Of a stretch of DNA of 61,656 bases, positions 1,935-59,483 are shown piece after piece. Position numbers and translations under genes: made by a program. The first letter of the stretch is position 1. Each line of letters starts with the position of its first letter. This DNA comes from a bacterium. Lineage in GTDB: Bacteria > Patescibacteriota > Minisyncoccia > CAYZDR01. The notes beneath the pieces are model-generated. The model was not told the DNA's origin, made no database searches, and saw nothing but the letters and a program-made list of their open reading frames with translations. Location: NCBI GenBank assembly GCA_043806975.1, contig JAZDGL010000069.1:1-61656 (forward strand), read 5' to 3'.

Positions 1935-1976
1935 CAGGCAATAGCAGACGGAGTTGTTGATAGCGGTTTTTTAATT

Positions 1977-2066
1977 ATAGCTCCCGCAAAACAAATTCCA
2001 ATATTTTCTCCCCGCGAAAAGGGAGATTGAGAGGGATTCTAAAATAAATTTGTTTTGCGACAGCTA
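1977..2066 (+). repeat. family-1 TIR/hairpin repeat, 1 module
   Basis: Sequence is TATAGCTCCCGCAAAACAAATTCC...TCTCCCcgcgaaaaGGGAGATTGAGAGGG...AAATTTGTTTTGCGACAGCTA. The termini are inverted repeats of each other. Confidence 0.9.
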
Positions 2067-2910: not shown

Positions 2911-4038
2911 ATGAATAAAAATAAAAAATTAAAAGTAATAGATTTATTTTCTGGCGTTGGCGGATTAAGTTATGGTTTTGCTTGCGATGATAATTTTGAA
3001 ATAGTAGCGGCGAATGAAATTTTAATGAATATGGCAAAAGCATATTCATTAAATCATCCAACGGTAAAAGTATATGCGGAAGATATAAAAAATTTTAATG
3101 CTGGAAAAGTTGAAAAAGATTTAAATATCAAATCAAGCGAGATTGATATTGTCGTTGGTGGACCGCCTTGCCAGGCATATTCAACTGTTGGGAAAAGGCT
3201 AAACAATGATCCGCGAGGAAAATTATTCCAAGAGTATTATAGAGTATTAAAAGAGTTTAACCCTAGATTATTTCTTTTTGAGAATGTAAAAGGTCTTTTG
3301 TCAATGCAAAACGGTGAATTATTGAAAACTATTATTTCTCTTTTTGAATCGCTTGGATATAAAGTGTGGCACAAGCTTTTGAATGCCGCTGATTATGGCG
3401 CGCCGCAAATGAGAGAAAGAGTTGTAATTATTGGTTCAAAACTAAAAACTGATTTTAAATATCCAGAACCAACGCATTATAATCCTGCGGATGCAGCAGG
3501 GTTGTTCGCTACGAAACTCAAGCCTTATTTAACGCTTGAAGAGGCAATAAGCGATTTGCCATTTATCAAATCAAATGAGGAAAGTTTTGAATATTCTTCC
3601 GAGCCTCAGAATGATTTTCAAAATTTTATGCGTAAAAATGCGCCAGCAAAATTGATGGATCATAACTCCCCAAAGAATAATGGAAATTTGGTAAGAATAA
3701 TGGAATTATTGCCAGATGGCGGGACGCCCGAGGATTTGCCTGAATATTTGCGTCCTATGTCGGGTTTTAAAAATACTTATTGCCGTTTGTGGTGGAAAAG
3801 ACCGGCGATGACGATTACAAGAAATTTAGGCACGCCTTCATCATCCCGTTGTATCCATCCAAAAGCGCCAAGACCGCTTACAACAAGAGAAGGCGCAAGA
3901 ATCCAATGTTTCCCTGATGATTATAAATTTTTTGGTTCTAGGGGGGATAGAAATTTACAAGTGGGGAATGCTGTGCCGACATTTTTGTCAAATGCAATTG
4001 CAAAAGCAATTTTAAAAAATTTTAGAGAAAATAGCTAA
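2911..4038 (+). CDS. dcm: DNA (cytosine-5)-methyltransferase
   Basis: Canonical C5-MTase motifs are present: DLFSGVGG (I), GGPPCQAYS (IV), ENV (VI), QMRERV (VIII), GNAVP (X). Confidence 0.92.
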   Translation: MNKNKKLKVIDLFSGVGGLSYGFACDDNFEIVAANEILMNMAKAYSLNHPTVKVYAEDIKNFNAGKVEKDLNIKSSEIDIVVGGPPCQAYSTVGKRLNNDPRGKLFQEYYRVLKEFNPRLFLFENVKGLLSMQNGELLKTIISLFESLGYKVWHKLLNAADYGAPQMRERVVIIGSKLKTDFKYPEPTHYNPADAAGLFATKLKPYLTLEEAISDLPFIKSNEESFEYSSEPQNDFQNFMRKNAPAKLMDHNSPKNNGNLVRIMELLPDGGTPEDLPEYLRPMSGFKNTYCRLWWKRPAMTITRNLGTPSSSRCIHPKAPRPLTTREGARIQCFPDDYKFFGSRGDRNLQVGNAVPTFLSNAIAKAILKNFRENS

Positions 4039-4149: not shown

Positions 4150-4189
4150 GAATTTGCTTTGCGACAGTTATATTTTGCAAGAAGCTATA
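4150..4189 (+). repeat. two tandem solo 3'-TIR remnants of family 1
   Basis: GAATTTGCTTTGCGACAGTTA is followed by TTTTGCAAGAAGCTATA. The first matches the 3' TIR at 2046-2066 in 18 of 21 positions. Confidence 0.6.
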
Positions 4190-4224
4190 ATTGAGCGTTA
4201 AAATTCAAAAAAGGAGGTGAAAGA

Positions 4225-4820: not shown

Positions 4821-5948
4821 ATGGATCAGGAAATTCAGCCTAAAATTTACAGTGTTGGAGAATTTTTAGACGAAATAAATGTTAAAATTTGCGATAAGGC
4901 GCTTGTTTGCGGAGAAATTTCTAAAATTTCAAATAGTCCGATTGCTTGCTATTTTTCTTTAAAGGATCCAAAAAATGGCGATGTTTTAGATTGTTTGATT
5001 TGGCAAAATGTTTGCAAAAAATTCGGCATAAGTTTAAAAGAAGGGCTTGCGGTTAAGGTTTTAGGATCCCCTGGTATTTATAAGCCGCAGTGCAGGTTTA
5101 ATTTCAAAGTAGATATTTTGGAAATGACGGGAGAGGGAATTTTACAGAAGCAGTATGAGGATTTGAAGAAAAAATTGGAGAAAGAAGGGATTTTTGCGGA
5201 GGACAGAAAAAAAGCGATTATTAAATTTCCGAAGAAAATTGGGCTTATAACTTCTAAATTTGGAGATGCAATTCACGATTTTAATGTTAATTTGGTGAAA
5301 GCAGGGTTAGAAATTGTCTTCAAAGATTCTCGTGTTGAGGGGTTAAAAGCGGTTTTAGAAGTATCTGATGCAATTAGATACTTTAATAATTGCGGGAAAA
5401 ATGAGGCGGGGAAAATAGATGCAATTGCGATTGTAAGAGGCGGAGGAAGCTGGGAAAGTTTGCAGGCGTTTAACAATGAAGCTGTTTGTCGGGCGGTTGC
5501 GGAAAGTCAGATACCTGTTCTTTGCGGAATTGGACACGAAAAAGATGTTCCGCTAGTATGTCTTGTCGCAGATAAATCTGTTTCAACTCCGACTGCGGCG
5601 GCAAAATTTTTAAGCGCAGGGTGGGAATCTGCTAGAAAAGAAACAGAAAATTTTAGAGAAAAAATAATTTCTCGCTTTGAAAGAGATCTAAAAAATAAAA
5701 GATATTCGGCAGATGCTTTTAGAGAAAAAATAATCGGAAGATTTCAAAGCATAATGCAGGACGCGAGGCATAAAGTAAAAATTTTGAGTCAGCGGTTAGC
5801 AGACATAAATCCGCAAAGGCAGCTAGAAAAAGGGTATAGCTTGATTTTTAAAGAAGGAAAGCTGGTAAAATCAGTTAAAAAGTTAAAAAGGGGTGATGAA
5901 GTGGATTTCCAATTAAAAGACGGAAAAGCGCAGGCAGAAATTTTATGA
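4821..5948 (+). CDS. xseA: exodeoxyribonuclease VII large subunit
   Basis: N-terminal OB-fold region YSVGEFLDEIN, GLITS..GDAIHD, RGGGSWESLQAFNNE, GIGHEKD. It has a 4-nt ATGA overlap with xseB. Confidence 0.88.
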   Translation: MDQEIQPKIYSVGEFLDEINVKICDKALVCGEISKISNSPIACYFSLKDPKNGDVLDCLIWQNVCKKFGISLKEGLAVKVLGSPGIYKPQCRFNFKVDILEMTGEGILQKQYEDLKKKLEKEGIFAEDRKKAIIKFPKKIGLITSKFGDAIHDFNVNLVKAGLEIVFKDSRVEGLKAVLEVSDAIRYFNNCGKNEAGKIDAIAIVRGGGSWESLQAFNNEAVCRAVAESQIPVLCGIGHEKDVPLVCLVADKSVSTPTAAAKFLSAGWESARKETENFREKIISRFERDLKNKRYSADAFREKIIGRFQSIMQDARHKVKILSQRLADINPQRQLEKGYSLIFKEGKLVKSVKKLKRGDEVDFQLKDGKAQAEIL

Positions 5949-6888: not shown

Positions 6889-7009
6889 TATAGCTATCGC
6901 AAAACAGATTCCGATATTTTCTCCCTTTGAAAAGGGAGATTGCCGTCCAAGACGGTCTGCCTTGGGCAGGAGAGGGATTTTAGAATAAATTTATTTTGCG
7001 GGAGACATA
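6889..7009 (+). repeat. family-1 TIR/hairpin repeat with extra GCCGTCCAAGACGG/CTGCCTTGGGCAG module
   Basis: 121 nt, about 10 mismatches to the copy at 14546-14666. It occupies essentially the whole scpA-scpB intergenic gap. Confidence 0.9.
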
Positions 7010-14545: not shown

Positions 14546-14666
14546 TATAGATCCCGCAAAACAAATTCCGATATTTTCTCCCTTTGAAAAGGGAGATTGC
14601 CGTCCAAGACGGTTTGCCTTGGGCAGGAGAGGGATTCTAAAATAAATTTGTTTTGCGGGAGCTATA
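14546..14666 (+). repeat. family-1 TIR/hairpin repeat with extra module
   Basis: Near-identical to the copy at 6889-7009. Termini are TATAGATCCCGCAAAACAAATT / AATTTGTTTTGCGGGAGCTATA. Confidence 0.9.
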
Positions 14667-21749: not shown

Positions 21750-21861
21750 TATAGCTTTTGCAAAACAAGTTTTCGGATTTTCTCTCTTTTTACCTCCCAA
21801 GGCGGTCTGCCTCAGGCGGAAGAGGGATTTTAAAATAAATTTGTTGCGTGGAAGCTGTATA
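21750..21861 (+). repeat. family-1 repeat, divergent copy
   Basis: TATAGCTTTTGCAAAACAAGTT...CCTCCCAAGGCGGTCTGCCTCAGGCGGAAGAGGGATTTTAAAATAAATTTGTTGCGTGGAAGCTGTATA. Confidence 0.75.
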
Positions 21862-24257: not shown

Positions 24258-24290
24258 AAGCTATAACTTCCGCAAAACAAATTCCGATAT
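24258..24290 (+). repeat. family-1 5' half element
   Basis: AAGCTATAACTTCCGCAAAACAAATTCCGATAT stops exactly where the family-2 element begins. Confidence 0.7.
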
Positions 24291-24442
24291 GGACTTACGC
24301 GTTTGGTGCATTTCTTCGTCAAATACTGCGGTGCTTGCTCGCCGTACCTTTAAGTACGCCTTCCCCTCCTTTCGGAGGAGGGGTTAGGGGAGGTGCGGGA
24401 TCCTCGCATTTTCCTTGAACTGCGCTCAAATGCGCAAGCCCT
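24291..24442 (+). repeat. family-2 GC-rich structured repeat, copy 1
   Basis: About 152 nt. By hand alignment it differs from the copy at 50977-51129 by 9 substitutions and one 1-nt indel. It has imperfect TIRs and a central CCCCTCCTTTCGGAGGAGGGG hairpin. Confidence 0.85.
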
Positions 24443-24465
24443 AATATCATAATTTAAAACTGTTT

Positions 24466-27469: not shown

Positions 27470-27694
27470 GCTGTTTTGCGATAGCTATAGCTGCCGCAAA
27501 ACAAATTCCAATATTTTCTCCTTTTGGTTCTCCTTCGCCCTATGGGCTTCGCGGGATGCAGCAAGGGAGATTAAGAGGGATTCCAATATTTTCTCCTCGC
27601 AATAAGGGAGACTGAGAGGGATTCCAATATTTCCTCCCTTAATAAGGGGGGATGAAGGGGGTTTTTAAAATAAATTTGTTTTGCGGAAGCTATA
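27470..27694 (+). repeat. family-1 cluster: solo 3' TIR plus full element with 3 tandem modules
   Basis: GCTGTTTTGCGATAGCTA overlaps the start of the full element, TATAGCTGCCGCAAAACAAATTCC. Three units of ATTCCAATATTT(T/C)CTCC-loop-GG(G)GA..AGAGGG follow, and it ends TTTGTTTTGCGGAAGCTATA. Confidence 0.9.
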
Positions 27695-27854: not shown

Positions 27855-29126
27855 ATGAGCCAAACAGTTATCTCGTTATTGAATAAAATAAAAATTGATC
27901 CATCGTGGTCTTTTTCCGATAAAACAAGGAAGGAAACGGCGTATATTACGCATGGGTATCATCGTTATCCTGCAAAATTTATTCCGCAAATAGTTTCTCG
28001 TTTGGCGGAAAAATATACACGAGCAGGCGATTTTATCGTTGATCCATTTGGTGGTTGCGGGACGACTCTTGTTGAATCAAGAGTTATGGGACGGCCGTCA
28101 ATTGCCGTTGATATTAACCCAGTCGCTGTTTTAATTACGAAAGCGAAAATTACGGCAATTGATCCTATAAAAATTGAAAAGGAATTTACAATTTTTCAAA
28201 AGAAATTGGAATCTTATAGCGAAAAAACAAAAGTAAAAGCTCCTGAGCACGAAAGAATTGACTATTGGTTTAAGCCAGAAGAAAAAAGAAAACTTGCTTT
28301 TATTTTTGCTGAGATTTCAAAAATAAAAGATCAAGATATTCAAGATTTCTTTTTCTGCGGGTTTTCAAACATTCTTAAAAATTGTTCAATATGGCTACAA
28401 AAAAGTAATAAACCAACAAGGGATTTTGAAAAAAAACCTTCGGAGCCGATTAAAACATTTTTAAAACAAATAAAAATGATGTTGCGAGGCAACACGCGAT
28501 TATTTGAATTGTTATCAGAAAAAGGTTATTCGAAGATTTCAAGTAAAGTAATTTGCACAGACGCAAGGACAATTCCCGCAAAGGATAACAGTGTTAGCTT
28601 GATTGTTACTTCTCCGCCTTATGTGACCTCTTACGAATACGCCGATCTGCACCAACTCACTGCTTTATGGTTAGAATATACTAAGGATTTGAGCGACTTT
28701 CGAAAACGATTTATTGGCACTTCGTATCACAATAAAAAAGATTTGACGCTTAATAGTGCGATTGCGGAAAATATCAGAAAAAAATTGTTAGAGAAAGATA
28801 AAAAAACCGCCGAGGAAGTTTCAACATACTTTAGCGAGATGAATCAGGTATTTGTTGAAATGAAAAGAATGCTAAAAAAAGGCGGAAAAACCTGTATTGT
28901 CATTGGCAATACGAGCTTAAAAGGCGTTGAAATACTTAATGCGGAGGTTTTTGTTGAGCAATTACAAAACTTGGGATTAAAAATCGCCGATATTATTAAA
29001 AGAGAAATTCCTTCAAAAAATTTGCCGTCTGTTCGAGATGAAAAGACGGGTAAATTTGCGAGCATAAATGATAAAAATAAAGTTTCTGTTTATCCAACAG
29101 AGTATATATTAATAATGGAAAAATAA
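27855..29126 (+). CDS. DNA methyltransferase, N4-cytosine or N6-adenine (SPPY type)
   Basis: Motif I DPFGGCGTT near the N-terminus and motif IV TSPPY about 190 aa later (alpha-like order). SPPY is commoner in m4C enzymes. Confidence 0.8.
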   Translation: MSQTVISLLNKIKIDPSWSFSDKTRKETAYITHGYHRYPAKFIPQIVSRLAEKYTRAGDFIVDPFGGCGTTLVESRVMGRPSIAVDINPVAVLITKAKITAIDPIKIEKEFTIFQKKLESYSEKTKVKAPEHERIDYWFKPEEKRKLAFIFAEISKIKDQDIQDFFFCGFSNILKNCSIWLQKSNKPTRDFEKKPSEPIKTFLKQIKMMLRGNTRLFELLSEKGYSKISSKVICTDARTIPAKDNSVSLIVTSPPYVTSYEYADLHQLTALWLEYTKDLSDFRKRFIGTSYHNKKDLTLNSAIAENIRKKLLEKDKKTAEEVSTYFSEMNQVFVEMKRMLKKGGKTCIVIGNTSLKGVEILNAEVFVEQLQNLGLKIADIIKREIPSKNLPSVRDEKTGKFASINDKNKVSVYPTEYILIMEK

Positions 29127-29804: not shown

Positions 29805-30533
29805 ATGTCCAATAATTTAATAATTGAGTCAACAACTTTATGGGATTTTCCGAGACAAAATTATGGTGACAAGCCACACGGAAATAATAAATATAACGGT
29901 GTAACGCCGGCTTTTGTCATTTGGAATTTACTCCAAAGATATACCAAAGAGGGCGATTTAGTCGTTGATCCGATGTGCGGGAGCGGGACGACAATTGATG
30001 TTGCAAAAGAATTGAACAGGAAAGTAATCGGCTATGATCTGAACATTGTTAGACCCGATGTAATTAAAAACGATGCCCGACAAATTCCGCTTGCTGACAA
30101 TTCTGTTGATTTTGTTTTTATTGATTCGCCATATTCCGACAATATCAATTATTCTGACAATAAAGAGTGCATTGGTAAAATTTCTTGCGAAAAAATAGAA
30201 TTTTATGATGAATTAGAAAAAACCGCTACGGAAATTGCAAGAATTTTAAAACCTGGAAAAGCTATGGGTTGGGTTATTGCCGATCAATGGGTCAAAAAGA
30301 AATTTACAGCCGTTGGATTTTTGATGTGGCAAAGGTTAGAAAAACATTTTGAACCAATGGATATTGTTTGCTTAACAAGGCATAACCAAACATCAAACAC
30401 GGGGATTTGGCATAACAGAGCAAGGCAGTTTAATTTTTATTTGAGAGGTTTTAAATATTTGTTTATTATGAGAAAATCAGCGCCATTGCGAGAAAAGCAG
30501 GTGAGTAGTCGTGAACCCAGCCATTTACTTTAA
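29805..30533 (+). CDS. second DNA methyltransferase (amino-MTase, motif I before motif IV)
   Basis: VVDPMCGSGTTIDVA (motif I) and FVFIDSPY (motif IV-like). Confidence 0.7.
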   Translation: MSNNLIIESTTLWDFPRQNYGDKPHGNNKYNGVTPAFVIWNLLQRYTKEGDLVVDPMCGSGTTIDVAKELNRKVIGYDLNIVRPDVIKNDARQIPLADNSVDFVFIDSPYSDNINYSDNKECIGKISCEKIEFYDELEKTATEIARILKPGKAMGWVIADQWVKKKFTAVGFLMWQRLEKHFEPMDIVCLTRHNQTSNTGIWHNRARQFNFYLRGFKYLFIMRKSAPLREKQVSSREPSHLL

Positions 30534-30570: not shown

Positions 30571-30610
30571 GAAGAGGAATTTGTAAATAATTTTTTTTGC
30601 GGGATCTATA
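30571..30610 (+). repeat. family-1 3' half element
   Basis: GAAGAGGAATTTGTAAATAATTTTTTTTGCGGGATCTATA aligns to GAGAGGGATTCTAAAATAAATTTGTTTTGCGGGAGCTATA. Confidence 0.65.
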
Positions 30611-37205: not shown

Positions 37206-39278
37206 ATGATAACGGCGAAAGAGCTTAGACAAAAATATATTGATTTTTTTAAGGAAAAAGGGCATAAAGCAATCCCCTCGGCTTCTTTAATCCCAGAAAA
37301 TGATCCAACTGTGCTTTTTACAACAGCTGGAATGCACCCGCTGGTTCCTTATTTATTGGGACAGCCGCATCCAGAGGGCAAGCGAATTGTTGACGCGCAA
37401 AAATGCGTTCGCACAGGGGACATTGAAGATGTTGGGGATAACCGTCATCTTACTTTTTTTGAAATGCTGGGGAACTGGTCGTTTGGGGATTATTTTAAAG
37501 AAGATGCGATCCAGTGGAGTTGGGAATTTTTAACTGGAAAAAAATGGCTGGGGCTTGACCCAAAAAGACTGTATATCACTGTCTTTAAAGGCGATGGTGA
37601 AATTCCCCGCGATGATGAGGTAGTTAAAATTTGGCAGGATCAGTTTAAAAAGTTTGGAATTTTTGCTGGCGTTGCTAATGATAATGCAGTTTGGGGGAGT
37701 GAGGATGTGAGGATTTTTGTTTTGCCAAAAAAGGATAATTTTTGGGAAATGGGAGGCGAGAATGGTCCGTGCGGACCTTGCACGGAAATTTTTTATGATG
37801 TTTTTCCTGAAAAGGGCTGGGAGAACAAAAATTTCGATGAGCTTACCTGCGAGTTTAGGTTTATAGAAATTTGGAATAATGTTTTTATGTTGTATAATAA
37901 AGCTGGCGCAGGAACATATGAGCCGCTTTTGCAAAAAAATGTTGATACGGGAATGGGTGTTGAGAGGACGGTTGCAATTTTAAATGGAGCAAAAAATGTT
38001 TTTGAAACGGAATTATTCGCGCCGATTATTAAGAGAATTAAGGGGATGGAAAATCCCCCTCAATCCCCCTTTGCAAAGGGGGAAAACGAAGGAGATTCTT
38101 TCCTAACCTCTTCTTTATCAAGGGAGAGAGAGGAAGAAAATCTCCCTGCCTCTTTTGCAAAGGGGGAAACGGAACACCCCCTCCAACTCCCCCTCCGGGA
38201 GGGGGAGAGAAAGAAGGAATGCCTCCTTCCTGAAGAGGAGAGAAGGAAGGGAGAAGTGGAAAAGTCTGAGCGAATTATCGCTGATCATATTAAAGCGGCA
38301 GTAATGATTTTGGCGGACGATAAAAAAATAGTTCCATCTAATGTTGAACGGGGGTATGTTTTGCGACGGCTGATCCGCCGCGCTGTTAGATATGGGAAAA
38401 TTTTGGGGATTGAAGGAAATTTTATGGCGCAAATCGCGGAGGCGGTTGTGGATATGTATAAAGAAACATATCTAGAAGTTGGAAAAAATAAGGACTTTAT
38501 TTTTAGAGAGCTGGAAAAAGAGGAGGATAAATTTGGGAAAACTTTGGGTAGGGGGCTTATAATGCTTGAAAAAACTGTGAAAGAATTAGATAAAAATACA
38601 ATGGCCGCGTTTAAAAAACATGGAGAAAAAGTTTATGAACCGAAAATTTCGGGAAAAATTGTGTTTGATTTGTATCAAACTTATGGTTTTCCACCTGAAT
38701 TAACGGAGGAGGAGCTGGCTGAATATACTTGGACATATGATAAAGAAGAATTTCAACAAGAGCTTAAAAAACATCAAGATCTTTCTCGCACCGCTTCTGC
38801 TGGAATGTTTAAATCAGGGCTTGCGGATAACTCAGAAGCTACAACGAAACTTCACACAGCTACTCATCTTCTTCAAGCGGCTTTGAGAGAAATTTTAGGA
38901 GTAAAAGTTGAGCAAAGAGGAAGTAATATCACCCCTGAAAGATTGCGTTTTGATTTTTCTCATTTTGAAAAAATGTCTTCTTCACAAATTAAGCAAGCTG
39001 AAAATTGGGTTAATGATAAAATTCAAAAAAATCTTGCTGTTATTTGTGAGGAAATGTCTCCAGAAAAAGCAAAAGAAAGCGGCGCGCTGGGGCTTTTTGA
39101 CGCAAAATACGGCAATCTAGTGACAGTTTTTACAATAAAAGATGGAGAAAAAATAATTTCTCGTGAAATTTGCAAAGGTCCGCATATAGAGGAAACGGGG
39201 GTTCTTGGAAAATTTAAAATTGTGAAAGAAGAAGCATCTTCGCAAGGAGTAAGAAGAATTAAAGCAGTTTTGGAATAA
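37206..39278 (+). CDS. alaS: alanine--tRNA ligase (short form) carrying an in-frame repeat insertion
   Basis: ELRQKYIDFFKEKGHKAIPSASLIP, FTTAGMHPLVPY, VDTGMGVERT, RGYVLRRLIRRA, editing-domain HxxxH (HTATHLLQ). About 73 extra codons lie between IIKRIKG and ERIIADH. Confidence 0.92.
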   Translation: MITAKELRQKYIDFFKEKGHKAIPSASLIPENDPTVLFTTAGMHPLVPYLLGQPHPEGKRIVDAQKCVRTGDIEDVGDNRHLTFFEMLGNWSFGDYFKEDAIQWSWEFLTGKKWLGLDPKRLYITVFKGDGEIPRDDEVVKIWQDQFKKFGIFAGVANDNAVWGSEDVRIFVLPKKDNFWEMGGENGPCGPCTEIFYDVFPEKGWENKNFDELTCEFRFIEIWNNVFMLYNKAGAGTYEPLLQKNVDTGMGVERTVAILNGAKNVFETELFAPIIKRIKGMENPPQSPFAKGENEGDSFLTSSLSREREEENLPASFAKGETEHPLQLPLREGERKKECLLPEEERRKGEVEKSERIIADHIKAAVMILADDKKIVPSNVERGYVLRRLIRRAVRYGKILGIEGNFMAQIAEAVVDMYKETYLEVGKNKDFIFRELEKEEDKFGKTLGRGLIMLEKTVKELDKNTMAAFKKHGEKVYEPKISGKIVFDLYQTYGFPPELTEEELAEYTWTYDKEEFQQELKKHQDLSRTASAGMFKSGLADNSEATTKLHTATHLLQAALREILGVKVEQRGSNITPERLRFDFSHFEKMSSSQIKQAENWVNDKIQKNLAVICEEMSPEKAKESGALGLFDAKYGNLVTVFTIKDGEKIISREICKGPHIEETGVLGKFKIVKEEASSQGVRRIKAVLE
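38046..38264 (+). repeat. GC-rich hairpin array inserted in frame inside alaS
   Basis: CCCCCTTTGCAAAGGGGG (38065-38082), GGAGATTCTTTCC...GGAAGAAAATCTCC, CTCCCCCTCCGGGAGGGGGAG (38187-38207), CCTTCCT...AGGAAGG. 219 nt = 73 codons with no stop. Confidence 0.8.
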
Positions 39279-47987: not shown

Positions 47988-48998
47988 ATGTCAAAAAAAA
48001 TTGCAGTTGATTTAGGAACGACAAATACCCTTGTTTATGTCCCTAAAAAGGGGATTGTGATTAACGAGCCTTCTGTTGTGGCGGTTTCCTTGTTGGATAA
48101 CAGCGTTATAGCGGTAGGGAGCGAGGCGAAGGAGATGCTAGGCAGGACTCCTGACGCGATCAAGGCATCTTGCCCACTAAAAGAGGGTGTAATAGCAGAT
48201 TATAAGGTTACAGAGGCTATGTTGAGGTATTTTATCAACAAGATTTGCGGGAAAATTCGTTTATCTCGTCCAGAAGTGCTTGTATCTGTGCCGGCGGGAA
48301 TAACTTCCACTGAAAGGCGGGCTGTACTTGAAGCGGCTAGGCAGGCAGGCGCAAAACAAGCATATATAATAAAAGAACCTGTTGCTGCGGCGCTGGGGGC
48401 AGGGATCCCTATAAATGCTCCTTCGGGTAATTTAATTGTGGATATTGGGGGCGGAACAAGCGAAGTGGCAGTTATTTCTCTTGGGGGCATCGTTGCAAGC
48501 GCGTCGGCGAGAGTAGGCGGGAACAGGCTGGATCAGTCAATAATTGAAATGATTAAGAAAAAGCATGGCTTGGCGATTGGCGAAAGAACTGCCGAAGAAA
48601 TAAAAATTGCCATAGGAAGCGCAGTTGCTCAGGAAAATGAGGAAGTTTTGGAAATAAGAGGCAGGGATTTAGCATCGGGGTTGCCGAAAACCGTGGAGGT
48701 TTCTTCTGATGATGTGACGGAGGCATTTCAAGATAATCTTAAAGAAATTTTAAGAACGATTAAACTGGTTTTGCGGGAAACCCCCCCCGAGCTTTCTGCT
48801 GATGTGATTGACAAGGGGTTGATTATTTCTGGCGGAGGCGCGCTTTTGAAAAACATTGACAGCCTCATATCTTCTTATACGGGTGTTCCCTGTTATGTTG
48901 CCAGCGAACCTTTGCTTTGTGTTGCCAAAGGAGCGGGGATGGTGTTGGAGAATCTAGATAATTTTAAGAAGAGTATATTAGCGGGAGCGAGAGGATAA
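47988..48998 (+). CDS. mreB: MreB-family actin homolog, paralog 1 (not linked to mreCD)
   Basis: IAVDLGTTNTLVYVPKKGIVINEPSVVAV, IVDIGGGTSEVAVISLGG, ISGGGALLKNID. Confidence 0.9.
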   Translation: MSKKIAVDLGTTNTLVYVPKKGIVINEPSVVAVSLLDNSVIAVGSEAKEMLGRTPDAIKASCPLKEGVIADYKVTEAMLRYFINKICGKIRLSRPEVLVSVPAGITSTERRAVLEAARQAGAKQAYIIKEPVAAALGAGIPINAPSGNLIVDIGGGTSEVAVISLGGIVASASARVGGNRLDQSIIEMIKKKHGLAIGERTAEEIKIAIGSAVAQENEEVLEIRGRDLASGLPKTVEVSSDDVTEAFQDNLKEILRTIKLVLRETPPELSADVIDKGLIISGGGALLKNIDSLISSYTGVPCYVASEPLLCVAKGAGMVLENLDNFKKSILAGARG

Positions 48999-50976: not shown

Positions 50977-51129
50977 AGGAATTACGCGTTTGGCGCATTT
51001 CTTCGTCAAATACTGCGGTGTTTGCTCGCCGTACCATTAAGTACGCCTTTCCCCTCCTTTCGGAGGAGGGGTTAGGGGAGGTGCGGGCTCCTCGCATTTT
51101 CCTTGAACTGCACTCAAACGCGTAAGTCC
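50977..51129 (+). repeat. family-2 GC-rich structured repeat, copy 2
   Basis: AGGAATTACGCGTTTG...CAAACGCGTAAGTCCT terminal inverted repeat, with central CGTAC-CATTAA-GTACG and CCCCTCCTTTCGGAGGAGGGG hairpins. Confidence 0.85.
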
Positions 51130-51165
51130 TAAAATATAGGAATTAAATAAAATAAGGAGAAAAAT

Positions 51166-54759: not shown

Positions 54760-55797
54760 ATGTTGAATAAACTGTTATCTTTGTTATCTCATGACATTGG
54801 CATAGACCTTGGCACCGCTAATACCCTTGTTTATGTCAGAAAAAAAGGCATTGTTATCAACGAGCCTTCCGTTGTGGCAATAAACCAAAAAACTGGAAAA
54901 GTTTTGGCGATAGGCGAAAATGCAAAAAAGATGGTGGGGAAAACGCCTGGGTATATAACGGCGATAAGACCATTAGTTGATGGGGTTATTTCTGATTTTG
55001 AAATTACCGAACAGATGCTTAGATATTTTATTGATAAAGTTCAGAGCGCGAAGTTTTTTTCATTTTTGTCGCGGCCGAGGATAGTAATTGGGATCCCGTC
55101 AGGGGTTACGGAAGTGGAAAAGAAAGCGGTTCAAGATGCGGCAATGAGCGCGGGAGCGCGGGAGGTATATTTAATTGAAGAGCCGATGGCGGCGGCAATT
55201 GGCTCGCGGCTTCCTATACAAGAAGCAACGGGGAATATGATAATTGATATTGGGGGAGGAACGACAGACATTGCTGTGATTTCGCTTGGCGGGATAGTTG
55301 TTTCAAAAAGCTTGCGAATTGCAGGCGATGAAATGAATGAAAGTATAATCCAATTTGTTCGTGAGCAGTTTAATATCCTTTTGGGGGAAAGAACAGCTGA
55401 AGCCGTGAAGATAAATATCGGTTCTGCTTGTGAATTGCCTGAACCGATGGAAATGCAAATTCGCGGACGAGATATCGTTACGGGGCTTCCGCGTGAAGCG
55501 ACTATAACTGACGAACAGGCAAGGATGGCCTTAAAGAAAACCGTAAAGGTGATAATTAGCAACGCAAAGGCTGCCATCGAAGAAACTCCGCCTGAGCTAG
55601 TTGCCGATATTATGCACAGGGGGATTGTTTTAACGGGAGGCGGAAGCCTTTTGAAGGGGTTGGATAAGGCGATTGCCGAAGAAACAAAAATGCCGATTAA
55701 AATTACCGAGGATCCGCTCACTTCCGTGGTCCGCGGAGCAGGAATAATTTTGGAGGATCTAGATTCTTTAAGGGAAGTTTTGGCGAGCGCGGTTTAA
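54760..55797 (+). CDS. mreB: rod shape-determining protein MreB (operon copy)
   Basis: IGIDLGTANTLVYVRKKGIVINEPSVVAI, IIDIGGGTTDIAVISLGG, LTGGGSLLKGLD. It is followed by mreC, mreD and PBP2. Confidence 0.95.
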   Translation: MLNKLLSLLSHDIGIDLGTANTLVYVRKKGIVINEPSVVAINQKTGKVLAIGENAKKMVGKTPGYITAIRPLVDGVISDFEITEQMLRYFIDKVQSAKFFSFLSRPRIVIGIPSGVTEVEKKAVQDAAMSAGAREVYLIEEPMAAAIGSRLPIQEATGNMIIDIGGGTTDIAVISLGGIVVSKSLRIAGDEMNESIIQFVREQFNILLGERTAEAVKINIGSACELPEPMEMQIRGRDIVTGLPREATITDEQARMALKKTVKVIISNAKAAIEETPPELVADIMHRGIVLTGGGSLLKGLDKAIAEETKMPIKITEDPLTSVVRGAGIILEDLDSLREVLASAV

Positions 55798-55806
55798 GGG
55801 CGTGTT

Positions 55807-55981
55807 TATAGCTCCCGCAAAACAAATTCCGATGTTTTCTCCCTTAGTAAGGGGGAATTGAAAGGGGTTCTAAAATTTTCTCCCTTTGAAAAGGGAGATT
55901 GAGAGGGATTCCGATATTTTCTCCCTTTTTGAAGGGAGACTAAGAGGGATTTTAAAATAAATTTGTTTTGCGGGAACTATA
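55807..55981 (+). repeat. family-1 repeat with 3 tandem modules between mreB and mreC
   Basis: TATAGCTCCCGCAAAACAAATTCC, then three TTTTCTCCC-loop-GGG(G)GA units, ending AAATTTGTTTTGCGGGAACTATA. The last A is the A of the mreC ATG. Confidence 0.9.
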
Positions 55982-59238: not shown

Positions 59239-59459
59239 ATATAGCTTTTGTAAAATAATTATATGGTAACTATTTCAATATCACAAAAAAAATTTCAAAA
59301 AATGAAAAAACTTTATGATAGATTTTATGAGATATATGGGGACAATGAAACCGTTTGGGATTTAAGCGATTTAGATAATATGCGCGAGATGGGGCAGGAA
59401 TTTATGGATATTTTCGCTGTTAATTTTAAAGAATAAATAAATTAGTTTTGCGAGAGCTA
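59239..59459 (+). repeat. family-1-like TIR pair enclosing a small ORF instead of hairpin modules
   Basis: The left end TATAGCTTTTGTAAAATAA resembles the divergent copy at 21750. The right end AAATAAATTAGTTTTGCGAGAGCTA matches the 3' TIR consensus. Confidence 0.5.
59263..59436 (+). CDS. 57-aa acidic small protein, absent from the ORF track
   Basis: MVTISISQKKFQKMKKLYDRFYEIYGDNETVWDLSDLDNMREMGQEFMDIFAVNFKE. It lies downstream of the 59197 promoter. There is no clear SD. Confidence 0.3.
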   Translation: MVTISISQKKFQKMKKLYDRFYEIYGDNETVWDLSDLDNMREMGQEFMDIFAVNFKE

Positions 59460-59483
59460 CATTATTATGAAAATAAAAAACAT

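Follow-up and report, generated by a model that had tools for sequence, protein, structure and literature searches.

The 61,656-nt contig JAZDGL010000069.1 (assembly GCA_043806975.1; Patescibacteriota, Minisyncoccia, CAYZDR01), analysed here over its whole length and referred to as the window, carries a family of short dispersed repeats, termed Family 1, in which terminal inverted repeats (TIRs) enclose tandem hairpin modules. Our analysis indicates that Family 1 is very probably a non-autonomous miniature inverted-repeat transposable element (MITE) of an IS630-family insertion sequence (IS), with a modular interior resembling that of the BOX element, and that it is ordinary in kind. The TIR of the family is shared with full-length IS and with other short elements, and Family 1 would therefore be one of several MITE families whose ends derive from a single IS630-family lineage. 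Only two features lift the family above the routine, namely a bias of its copies towards the sense orientation and an array of modules inside alaS, the gene for alanyl-tRNA synthetase (AlaRS), and neither can be judged without the rest of the genome.

The ends belong to an IS630-family insertion sequence

The TIR of Family 1 is a 22-nt sequence, TATAGCTCCCGCAAAACAAATT, for which the window contains 12 matches on the two strands at no more than 3 mismatches, compared with 0 in 100 dinucleotide-preserving shuffles. A TIR pattern with 20 of its 22 positions specified (TATAGNTNCCGCAAAACAAATT) was scanned against one genome per GTDB species. The scan recovered 30 loci, where an estimate based on the 20 specified bases predicts about 1 by chance. 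In several metagenome-assembled genomes (MAGs), mostly of Patescibacteria, the TIR bounds elements of 1093-1144 bp. Four of these (L004, L015, L020 and L027; Table 1) match the pattern exactly at one end and with 1-3 mismatches at the other, and the first three hold a single open reading frame (ORF) of about 348 codons whose 3' end falls within the right TIR, the final residues being ...KIPEFVLR followed by the stop. The product of this ORF contains the Pfam domains HTH and DDE_3, scores 202 bits against the NCBIfam equivalog NF033545 (IS630 family transposase; cut-off 100) and is annotated at its source as 'IS630 family transposase [Patescibacteria group bacterium]'. Relatives of the transposase number 777 at E <= 1e-30 and reside mostly on contigs of about 1.1-2 kb, as is expected if a repeated IS breaks assemblies.

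Intact copies of Family 1 match the ends of the IS630-type IS at 20-22 of 22 nt, and a weaker similarity extends beyond the TIR to about 35 nt (AAATTC-G/C-G..ATTTT). Shorter elements of 130-258 bp that lack genes are enclosed by this TIR as well, and their interiors are unrelated and rich in hairpins (L008, L009, L010, L023, L024, L025, L028 and L029). These short elements come from four other MAGs, of which one carries the label Pseudomonadota and three are either labelled Patescibacteria or left unclassified. That IS copies of several phyla have a nearly identical TIR marks a broad-host-range IS630 lineage; within an incomplete coverage of the literature, we found no paper treating IS630 elements or MITEs in Patescibacteria. 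A tblastn search of the window with the IS transposase returned no relative, in agreement with an earlier note on this DNA, made from the sequence and its ORFs, which had seen no transposase there.

The complete 6.4-Mb Latescibacterota chromosome OZ247580.1 holds a copy of this same IS630-family IS (L019, 4343-6339), which is split by about 0.9 kb of foreign sequence. ORFs at 5039-5844 within this interruption resemble another transposase, and the end of a second copy is present in L003.

Copies of the family in the window

Intergenic reading combined with a repeat finder resolved six complete elements of 91-209 nt, each bounded by TIRs in inverted orientation and containing 1-3 tandem modules of 41 nt. 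The six total 829 nt, so that for the purposes of annotation full copies of the family account for about 1.3% of the contig, a share that rises when fragments are included. Together with at least five fragments they are dispersed over 61.7 kb, and their flanks differ. The TIRs of the 14546, 27486 and 55807 copies are near-perfect (21-22 of 22 positions), and the 1976, 6889 and 21750 copies are decaying. The description of the family in the earlier note, as TIRs around tandem hairpin modules, is borne out by the TIR matches and by the 41-nt spacing. Five of its full copies keep their coordinates, and one moves its start from 1977 to 1976; its fragments are likewise present, with boundaries refined to 4151-4192, 24262-24290, 27470-27489 and 59239-59461 and left unchanged at 30571-30610.

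Table 1 Family 1 copies, fragments and module array in the window, and full-length IS with the same ends in other genomes
Sequence	Position	Strand	Feature	Remarks
Window	1976..2066	+	full copy, 91 nt, 1 module	right TIR degenerate, terminal TA gone; 41 nt downstream of tRNA-Ala
Window	4151..4192		two adjacent TIR remnants	strand undefined; 4151-4172 aligns better as - strand left end; informative fragment at 4172, weak left end, antisense
Window	6889..7009	+	full copy, 121 nt, 1 module and 27-nt double-hairpin insert	fills the scpA-scpB spacer
Window	14546..14666	+	full copy, 121 nt, subtype of 6889 (91% identical)	near-perfect TIRs; between murG and hpf
Window	21750..21861	+	degenerate full copy, 112 nt, 1 module	3' arm of hairpin lost, TIRs decayed; between secF and a sigma-70 gene
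Window	24262..24290	+	left-end fragment (TIR and ATTCCGATAT)	cut off by a copy of the second repeat family at 24291-24447; informative fragment at 24262, left end, sense
Window	27470..27489	-	solo TIR remnant, about 20 nt	head-to-head against the focal copy, sharing the central TATA: GCGATAGC-TATA-GCTGCCGC
Window	27486..27694	+	focal full copy, 209 nt, 3 modules	TIRs 21/22 against the consensus
Window	30571..30610	+	right-end fragment (subterminal region and TIR)	informative fragment at 30610, right end, sense
Window	38043..38261	-	TIR-less array of about five degenerate modules	C5/G5 variant, e.g. TTTTCCCCCTTTGCAAAGGGGGATTGAGGGGGATTTT; inside alaS, 37206-39278
Window	55807..55981	+	full copy, 175 nt, 3 modules	TIRs 22/22 and 21/22; between mreB and mreC
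Window	59239..59461	+	TIR-bounded element, 223 nt, unrelated interior	left TIR degenerate, right TIR 19/22
L004	5115-6248		full-length IS	
L015	53-1196		full-length IS	
L020	5924-7016		full-length IS	
L027	1443-2562		full-length IS	reading frame split in two

The focal copy carries a 44-nt loop insert in its first module and is placed between the stop of a radical-SAM gene (27460) and tRNA-Pro (27716). Judged by its alignment, the TIR remnant at 4151-4172 may be what is left of a copy in reverse orientation. Several minor observations attach to these copies: tRNA genes (1864 and 27716) adjoin two of the six full copies, a weak TIR-like sequence with 6 mismatches (GATAGCCTTTGTAAAACAAATT) occurs at 1792-1813 upstream of tRNA-Ala, and the interior of the 59239-59461 element holds a 44-codon ORF (MKKLYDRFYEIYGDNETVWDLSDLDNMREMGQEFMDIFAVNFKE).

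Anatomy of the interior modules

The repeat finder places the modules of multi-module copies exactly 41 nt apart, start to start, with three modules each in the 27486 and 55807 copies and one in every other full copy. A covariance model of the module recognised 10 modules in the window at E <= 6e-6, all on the + strand and all inside TIR-bounded copies. In the fold of each module, the closing stem AAUUCC/GGGAUU surrounds the hairpin UCUCCC(UU)/(AA)GGGAGA. The units are contiguous, and the variable part of each is the 3-8-nt loop of its hairpin. Around the whole element the two TIRs pair over about 20 bp, giving a fold made up of this stem and one hairpin per module. The idea that each CT-rich arm might choose between two GA-rich partners stands in part: GAGAGGG can pair with UUUUCUC, which requires three G.U pairs, and in the minimum-energy folds it is the GGGAUU part of the second GA-rich run that closes the module by pairing with AAUUCC.

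The 27-nt double hairpin (CCGTC..GACGG / CTGCC..GGCAG) is inserted between GGGAGATTG and GAGAGGG in the 6889 and 14546 copies, and a decayed third version is present in the 21750 copy. A direct repeat, ATTC(C/T), flanks each module, and the second module of the 55807 copy starts as a hybrid of right subterminal sequence and module start. Taken together, the flanking repeat and the hybrid start fit duplication of modules by slippage or unequal exchange.

Distribution and signs of insertion

The SecA protein encoded in the window (MFH1175663.1) has its nearest relatives at 65-75% identity, followed by Moranbacteria and Patescibacteria at about 53%, which places the organism among the Patescibacteria. 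Syntenic relatives were represented by five contigs (L048, L049, L051, L058 and L059) that match 5.5-28 kb of the window and total about 96 kb. These five contigs contain no TIR-like sequence at up to 5 mismatches and no module, with the exception of a weak generic hairpin in L048. The spacer between scpA and scpB measures 10, 19, 22, 77 and 132 nt in the five relatives and 127 nt in the window, of which 121 nt are element; the DUF8128-trwB spacer measures 7 nt in L051 versus 217 nt in the window. With SecA identities of 65-75%, the relatives are too distant for empty sites to be aligned base by base. Every intact end of the family reads TATAGC...GCTATA with no additional duplication outside it, as a TA duplication of the IS630 type would give.

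Several results weigh against the assignment of Family 1 to IS630-type MITEs. A duplication of 4 bp (TATA) accounts for the junction at 27470-27489 (GC-TATA-GC) no less well than one of 2 bp (TA). Neither an empty site nor an insertion polymorphism was found among the distant relatives, so that mobility and the TA duplication are inferred. No cognate transposase was shown in this genome, of which a single contig was covered, its MAG being missing from the scanned collection of GTDB genomes. Searches of GTDB representatives, JGI metagenomes and IMG/VR did not find the interior of the family, whose history consequently rests on 6 copies. Sense orientation in 6 of 6 full copies is unexpected for a cut-and-paste element that targets TA. 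Finally, TIR-less modules in alaS and a module-like stretch in a gene of the MAG JAZDNE01, both described below, are not explained by viewing the module purely as the interior of a MITE.

Candidates from the wider searches were rejected. A scan of the JGI metagenomes with the module pattern (ATTCCRATATTTTCTCC-N4-30-GGRGA) gave 17 matches, all of them by chance; in IMG/VR the pattern for a TIR-plus-module junction gave 5 chance matches and the TIR pattern gave none. MITE copies miscalled as proteins were sought by translation of the antisense strand, and this yielded no candidate.

A module array inside alaS

With its filters switched off, the covariance model returned one full-length match on the - strand, at 38049-38097 (38.9 bits, E = 6e-9). 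This match belongs to the TIR-less array within alaS (Table 1), a gene identified by the Pfam domain tRNA-synt_2c. The earlier statement that every copy is intergenic thus holds for TIR-bounded copies and fails for this array, which is on the opposite strand. The array is translated in frame as AlaRS residues 280-352, an insert of 73 residues (ENPPQSPFAKGENEG...ASFAKGETEH...LPLREGERK...), at a site where the Escherichia coli enzyme (3hxu) has a 10-residue loop, query residues 279-352 aligning to chain residues 267-277. Stops interrupt two of the three reading frames on the + strand of the module and none on its - strand, so that this orientation alone could persist within a gene. A phmmer search with the insert peptide against 1.84 billion representative proteins found no convincing relative; it gave two matches, one to an unrelated repeat protein and the other weak (E 5e-5). 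Rickettsia palindromic elements offer a parallel, as they are palindromic units that sit in frame within genes for conserved proteins and are translated into an additional segment at the protein surface. The alaS array is alike in its in-frame palindromic units and differs in that these units are modules from inside a MITE whose ends are missing. The array adds to the insertions at the tight junctions scpA-scpB and mreB-mreC in indicating that this small and strongly strand-biased Patescibacteria genome tolerates MITE insertions, even inside the essential alaS.

Two courses may account for the array: a whole MITE may have inserted and then lost its ends, or the module may expand on its own. 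The second course leads to an alternative account of the whole family, which we consider unlikely, in which the 41-nt module is an independent, REP-like (repetitive extragenic palindrome) or self-expanding palindrome of this lineage that was captured between IS630 TIRs and spreads by slippage, recombination or another enzyme, also inside genes. The in-frame array of about five modules lacking TIRs speaks for this account, but the alaS units are only about 70% like the consensus, one of the five passes the covariance model, and they could be the remains of a complete MITE minus its ends. A second candidate for a free module is a module-like stretch (AAAGGGGGGTTGAGGGGGATTTTT) at L013 503-547, in contig JAZDNE010000043.1 of the MAG JAZDNE01. 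It sits within an apparent insertion, together with further GC-rich hairpins, that splits the NTP_transferase domain of a 454-codon ORF, a nucleotidyl-transferase gene; matches in other MAGs are, however, single and weak (24-27 bits). The variation in module number from 1 to 3 among copies agrees with self-expansion, as does the similar hairpin (CCCCTCC-loop-GGAGGGG-TTAG-GGGAGG) of an unrelated repeat, Family 2, yet intergenic modules occur only inside TIR-bounded copies, and the window holds no transposase of the Y1 type, such as the REP-associated tyrosine transposase (RAYT). A REP or bacterial interspersed mosaic element (BIME) system with a RAYT (Y1) was rejected because intergenic modules are present only between IS630-type TIRs and because tblastn with a Y1-like protein of L058 was empty in the window. 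The latter protein is the product of a 197-aa gene at L058 8327-8920 (CAYZDR010000013.1), which has a faint Y1 transposase (PF01797) signal, stands beside a truncated murG and has no counterpart in the window.

The second repeat family has two copies, at 24291-24447 and 50978-51135, which measure 157-158 nt, are 93% identical and are both on the + strand. It has its own inverted ends of about 20 nt (GGAMTTACGCGTTTGGYGCA) and a strongly folded interior, and one of its copies cuts off a Family 1 left end. It was not found in any fetched locus.

Gene context and orientation

Of the 51 ORFs in the window that reach 150 codons or more, 47 are on the + strand, and the GC skew is positive throughout, ranging from +0.07 to +0.32 over all 2-kb bins. 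All six full copies are placed between + strand genes or tRNAs and have their modules in sense. The 6889 copy begins 3 nt past the scpA stop (6885) and ends 3 nt ahead of the scpB ATG (7013), a start that is backed by alignment with an orthologue, and the GGGAG of its right TIR stands 8 nt upstream of this ATG. The 55807 copy begins 9 nt past the mreB stop (55797), its last base (55981) is the A of the mreC ATG, and a GGGAA stands 4 nt upstream of the mreC start; mreB and mreC were assigned by Pfam. As scpA-scpB and mreB-mreC are textbook operons, the copies within them must be transcribed in the operon mRNAs. The picture drawn by the earlier note, of dense copies in one orientation that are necessarily transcribed, therefore agrees with 6 of 6 sense copies and with their presence inside operon spacers.

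The orientation of the six full copies corresponds to p = 0.03 in a two-sided binomial test, and inclusion of the informative fragments (Table 1) gives 8 of 9 in sense with p = 0.04 in the same test. The sense bias is real in the window, statistically weak and confounded with gene strand; since nearly all genes are on the + strand, effects of transcription and of replication are inseparable. A 202-bp MITE with the same TIR in the MAG JAHISN01 is found in mixed orientation relative to its flanking genes, and any bias would accordingly belong to the present interior and not to the transposition mechanism. Should the bias extend over the genome, its cause would most likely be selection against a C-rich antisense transcript or against the loss of G.U-dependent folds, a suggestion that we offer as speculative. 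The 55807 interior counts 33 G and 18 C, and we speculate that its C-rich, G-poor antisense transcript may favour Rho-dependent polarity, which is one possible cause of the bias. A bias that proved true genome-wide would make Family 1 a compact natural system for studying how the polycistronic mRNAs of reduced genomes accommodate structured insertions.

Folding of the transcribed strand

The orientation and placement of the copies also raise a reading that we judge to be quite improbable, according to which the IS630-type ends testify to origin only and the copies are domesticated cis-acting RNAs, kept for a sense-strand structure that serves the operons. Candidate roles would be translational coupling through the TIR stem, a signal for RNase III processing or stability, or ribosome standby on an exposed GAGAGGG. 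Such domestication would be in keeping with the sense orientation of 10 of 10 modules in TIR-bounded copies and of 6 of 6 full copies, and with two copies that run exactly from stop to start in classic operons and in which a TIR-borne GGGAG or GGGAA precedes the start by 4-8 nt. The unbiased MITE with the same TIR and a different interior would likewise make the bias a property of the present interior. The orientation result, however, reaches p of about 0.03 and is confounded with both gene strand and replication strand.

The folding data are similarly divided. When 9 modules are aligned, standard pairs occupy 94% of the pair cells, versus at most 75% when the partners are slid. G.U pairs make up 23 of 126 pair cells, and the complementary strand would be 76% paired as against 94% for the sense strand, although an excess of G.U is to be expected on a G+T-rich leading strand. 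Multi-module copies fold better on the + strand, by 7-14 kcal/mol, whereas two of the single-module copies fold equally on both strands and a third is more stable in antisense; the fold z-scores of the focal copy are equal on the two strands (-4.94 and -4.96). The covariation check proposed for the modules did not turn out in favour of a conserved structure, as the 9 aligned modules, at low power, gave no two-sided pair change and no measure above shuffled controls. Copy number, module number and context vary, several copies are decaying and the element is absent from 5 of 5 relatives, all of which argues against copies that are kept for a function.

Scans of the elements for promoters and terminators found nothing consistent, the lone promoter-like exception being TTGGAA-16-TATAAT on the - strand, pointing out of the left end of the 1976 copy. 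A search of the window with Rfam 15 brought only 3 tRNAs to the gathering score, and the best match in the focal region had 16 bits against thresholds of 37-60. No Rfam family fits. A riboswitch or small-RNA family and a terminator array were among the readings rejected.

A broader proposal joins the strand bias to the alaS array and treats the module as a strand-selected functional unit of this Patescibacteria lineage. In sense, and within IS630 shells at operon junctions, the TIR stem and the G.U-dependent folds would serve to couple the flanking cistrons or to process them; when reversed, the module would have expanded to the 73-residue AlaRS insertion. We regard this as a long shot. The earlier note, which left room for more than a standard MITE, had named as refutation a known MITE with a cognate IS in the genome together with an absence of both orientation bias and covariation. 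In substance the cognate IS exists, in other MAGs; covariation is not supported, and an orientation bias is present in the window and weak.

A CRISPR-like mini-array, or else a known family of structured RNA genes, to which the tandem units of about 41 nt and a sub-threshold match to CRISPR-DR19 (15.4 bits against 40) might point, has a practically negligible probability given that the variable part is a 3-8-nt hairpin loop and not a spacer, that inverted repeats identical to IS ends delimit the arrays and that no Rfam family reaches its gathering score. A CRISPR array in particular is ruled out by anatomy, as the units are contiguous, and its exclusion in the earlier note is upheld.

A proposed mechanism

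If Family 1 is a MITE of the IS630 family, its movement may be pictured from the known mechanism of that family. A DDE transposase of an IS of about 1.1 kb, absent from this contig and supplied in trans, would bind the TIRs and paste the excised element into TA dinucleotides of AT-rich spacers. The ATTC(C/T) repeats that flank each unit would allow module number to change through slippage or unequal recombination, as is the case for boxB in the pneumococcal BOX element. Copies in very short same-strand operon spacers are, by virtue of their position, transcribed within mRNAs. In such an mRNA the TIR stem of about 20 bp would set the upstream stop beside the downstream start, and a terminating ribosome could open the stem and thereby free the Shine-Dalgarno-like GGGAG. 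The GGGAG of the distal TIR might in this way act as the Shine-Dalgarno sequence for scpB and mreC. A TIR stem combined with a GGGAG that is freed on termination would explain why insertions at gene junctions are tolerated.

Comparison with known elements

The BOX element is laid out as boxA-boxB(n)-boxC, the TIRs of the RUP element (repeat unit of pneumococcus) are like those of IS630-Spn1, its proposed partner, and both are co-transcribed structured repeats (PMC3049150). Family 1 resembles RUP in being a short, gene-less, TIR-bounded dispersed repeat whose TIRs resemble those of an IS630-family IS that would mobilise it in trans, and in residing mostly between genes and forming a long stem when transcribed (PMC3049150). 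It differs in its unrelated sequence and its phylum; RUP is moreover a simple 107-bp unit without tandem modules, and the partner IS of Family 1 was found only in other genomes. With BOX it shares mutually pairing ends around a variable number of tandem, self-folding modules of about 41-45 nt, co-transcription with neighbouring genes, varying module number and ORFs that run through elements (PMC3049150). The ends of BOX are only weakly like those of an IS (ISSpn2), whereas the intact copies here agree with IS630-type ends at the 20-22 of 22 nt given above. The resemblance to BOX is probably one of design and not of descent, homology being unlikely between elements of different phyla.

The Correia elements of Neisseria have TIRs of about 26 nt that begin with TATAG, and they insert at TA. 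They are similar to Family 1 in standing close to gene starts and differ in having no known transposase partner and no tandem modules. Correia elements also possess a site for integration host factor and outward promoters, and the present elements have no consistent promoter or terminator. When present in mRNA, Correia TIR stems are cleaved by RNase III and can affect expression (PMC10969869), and ERIC elements have orientation-dependent effects that involve RNase E (PMC10969869, PMC3049150). Chunjie, a MITE from Geobacter uraniireducens, is described as an element that is likewise present inside an operon without breaking it, occurs in size variants and has numerous incomplete copies (PMC10969869, citing Chen et al. 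2008); its IS lineage and sequence differ from those of Family 1.

Other features of the contig

Three DNA methyltransferase genes are present at 2911-4038, 27855-29126 and 29805-30533, one of the C5 type and two of the N6/N4 type, and two of the three are situated just downstream of the focal copy. The window also encodes two mreB-like paralogues (47988-48998 and 54760-55797) that share 77% nucleotide identity over their 5' ends, and the second of them is followed by the 55807 element and then by mreC.

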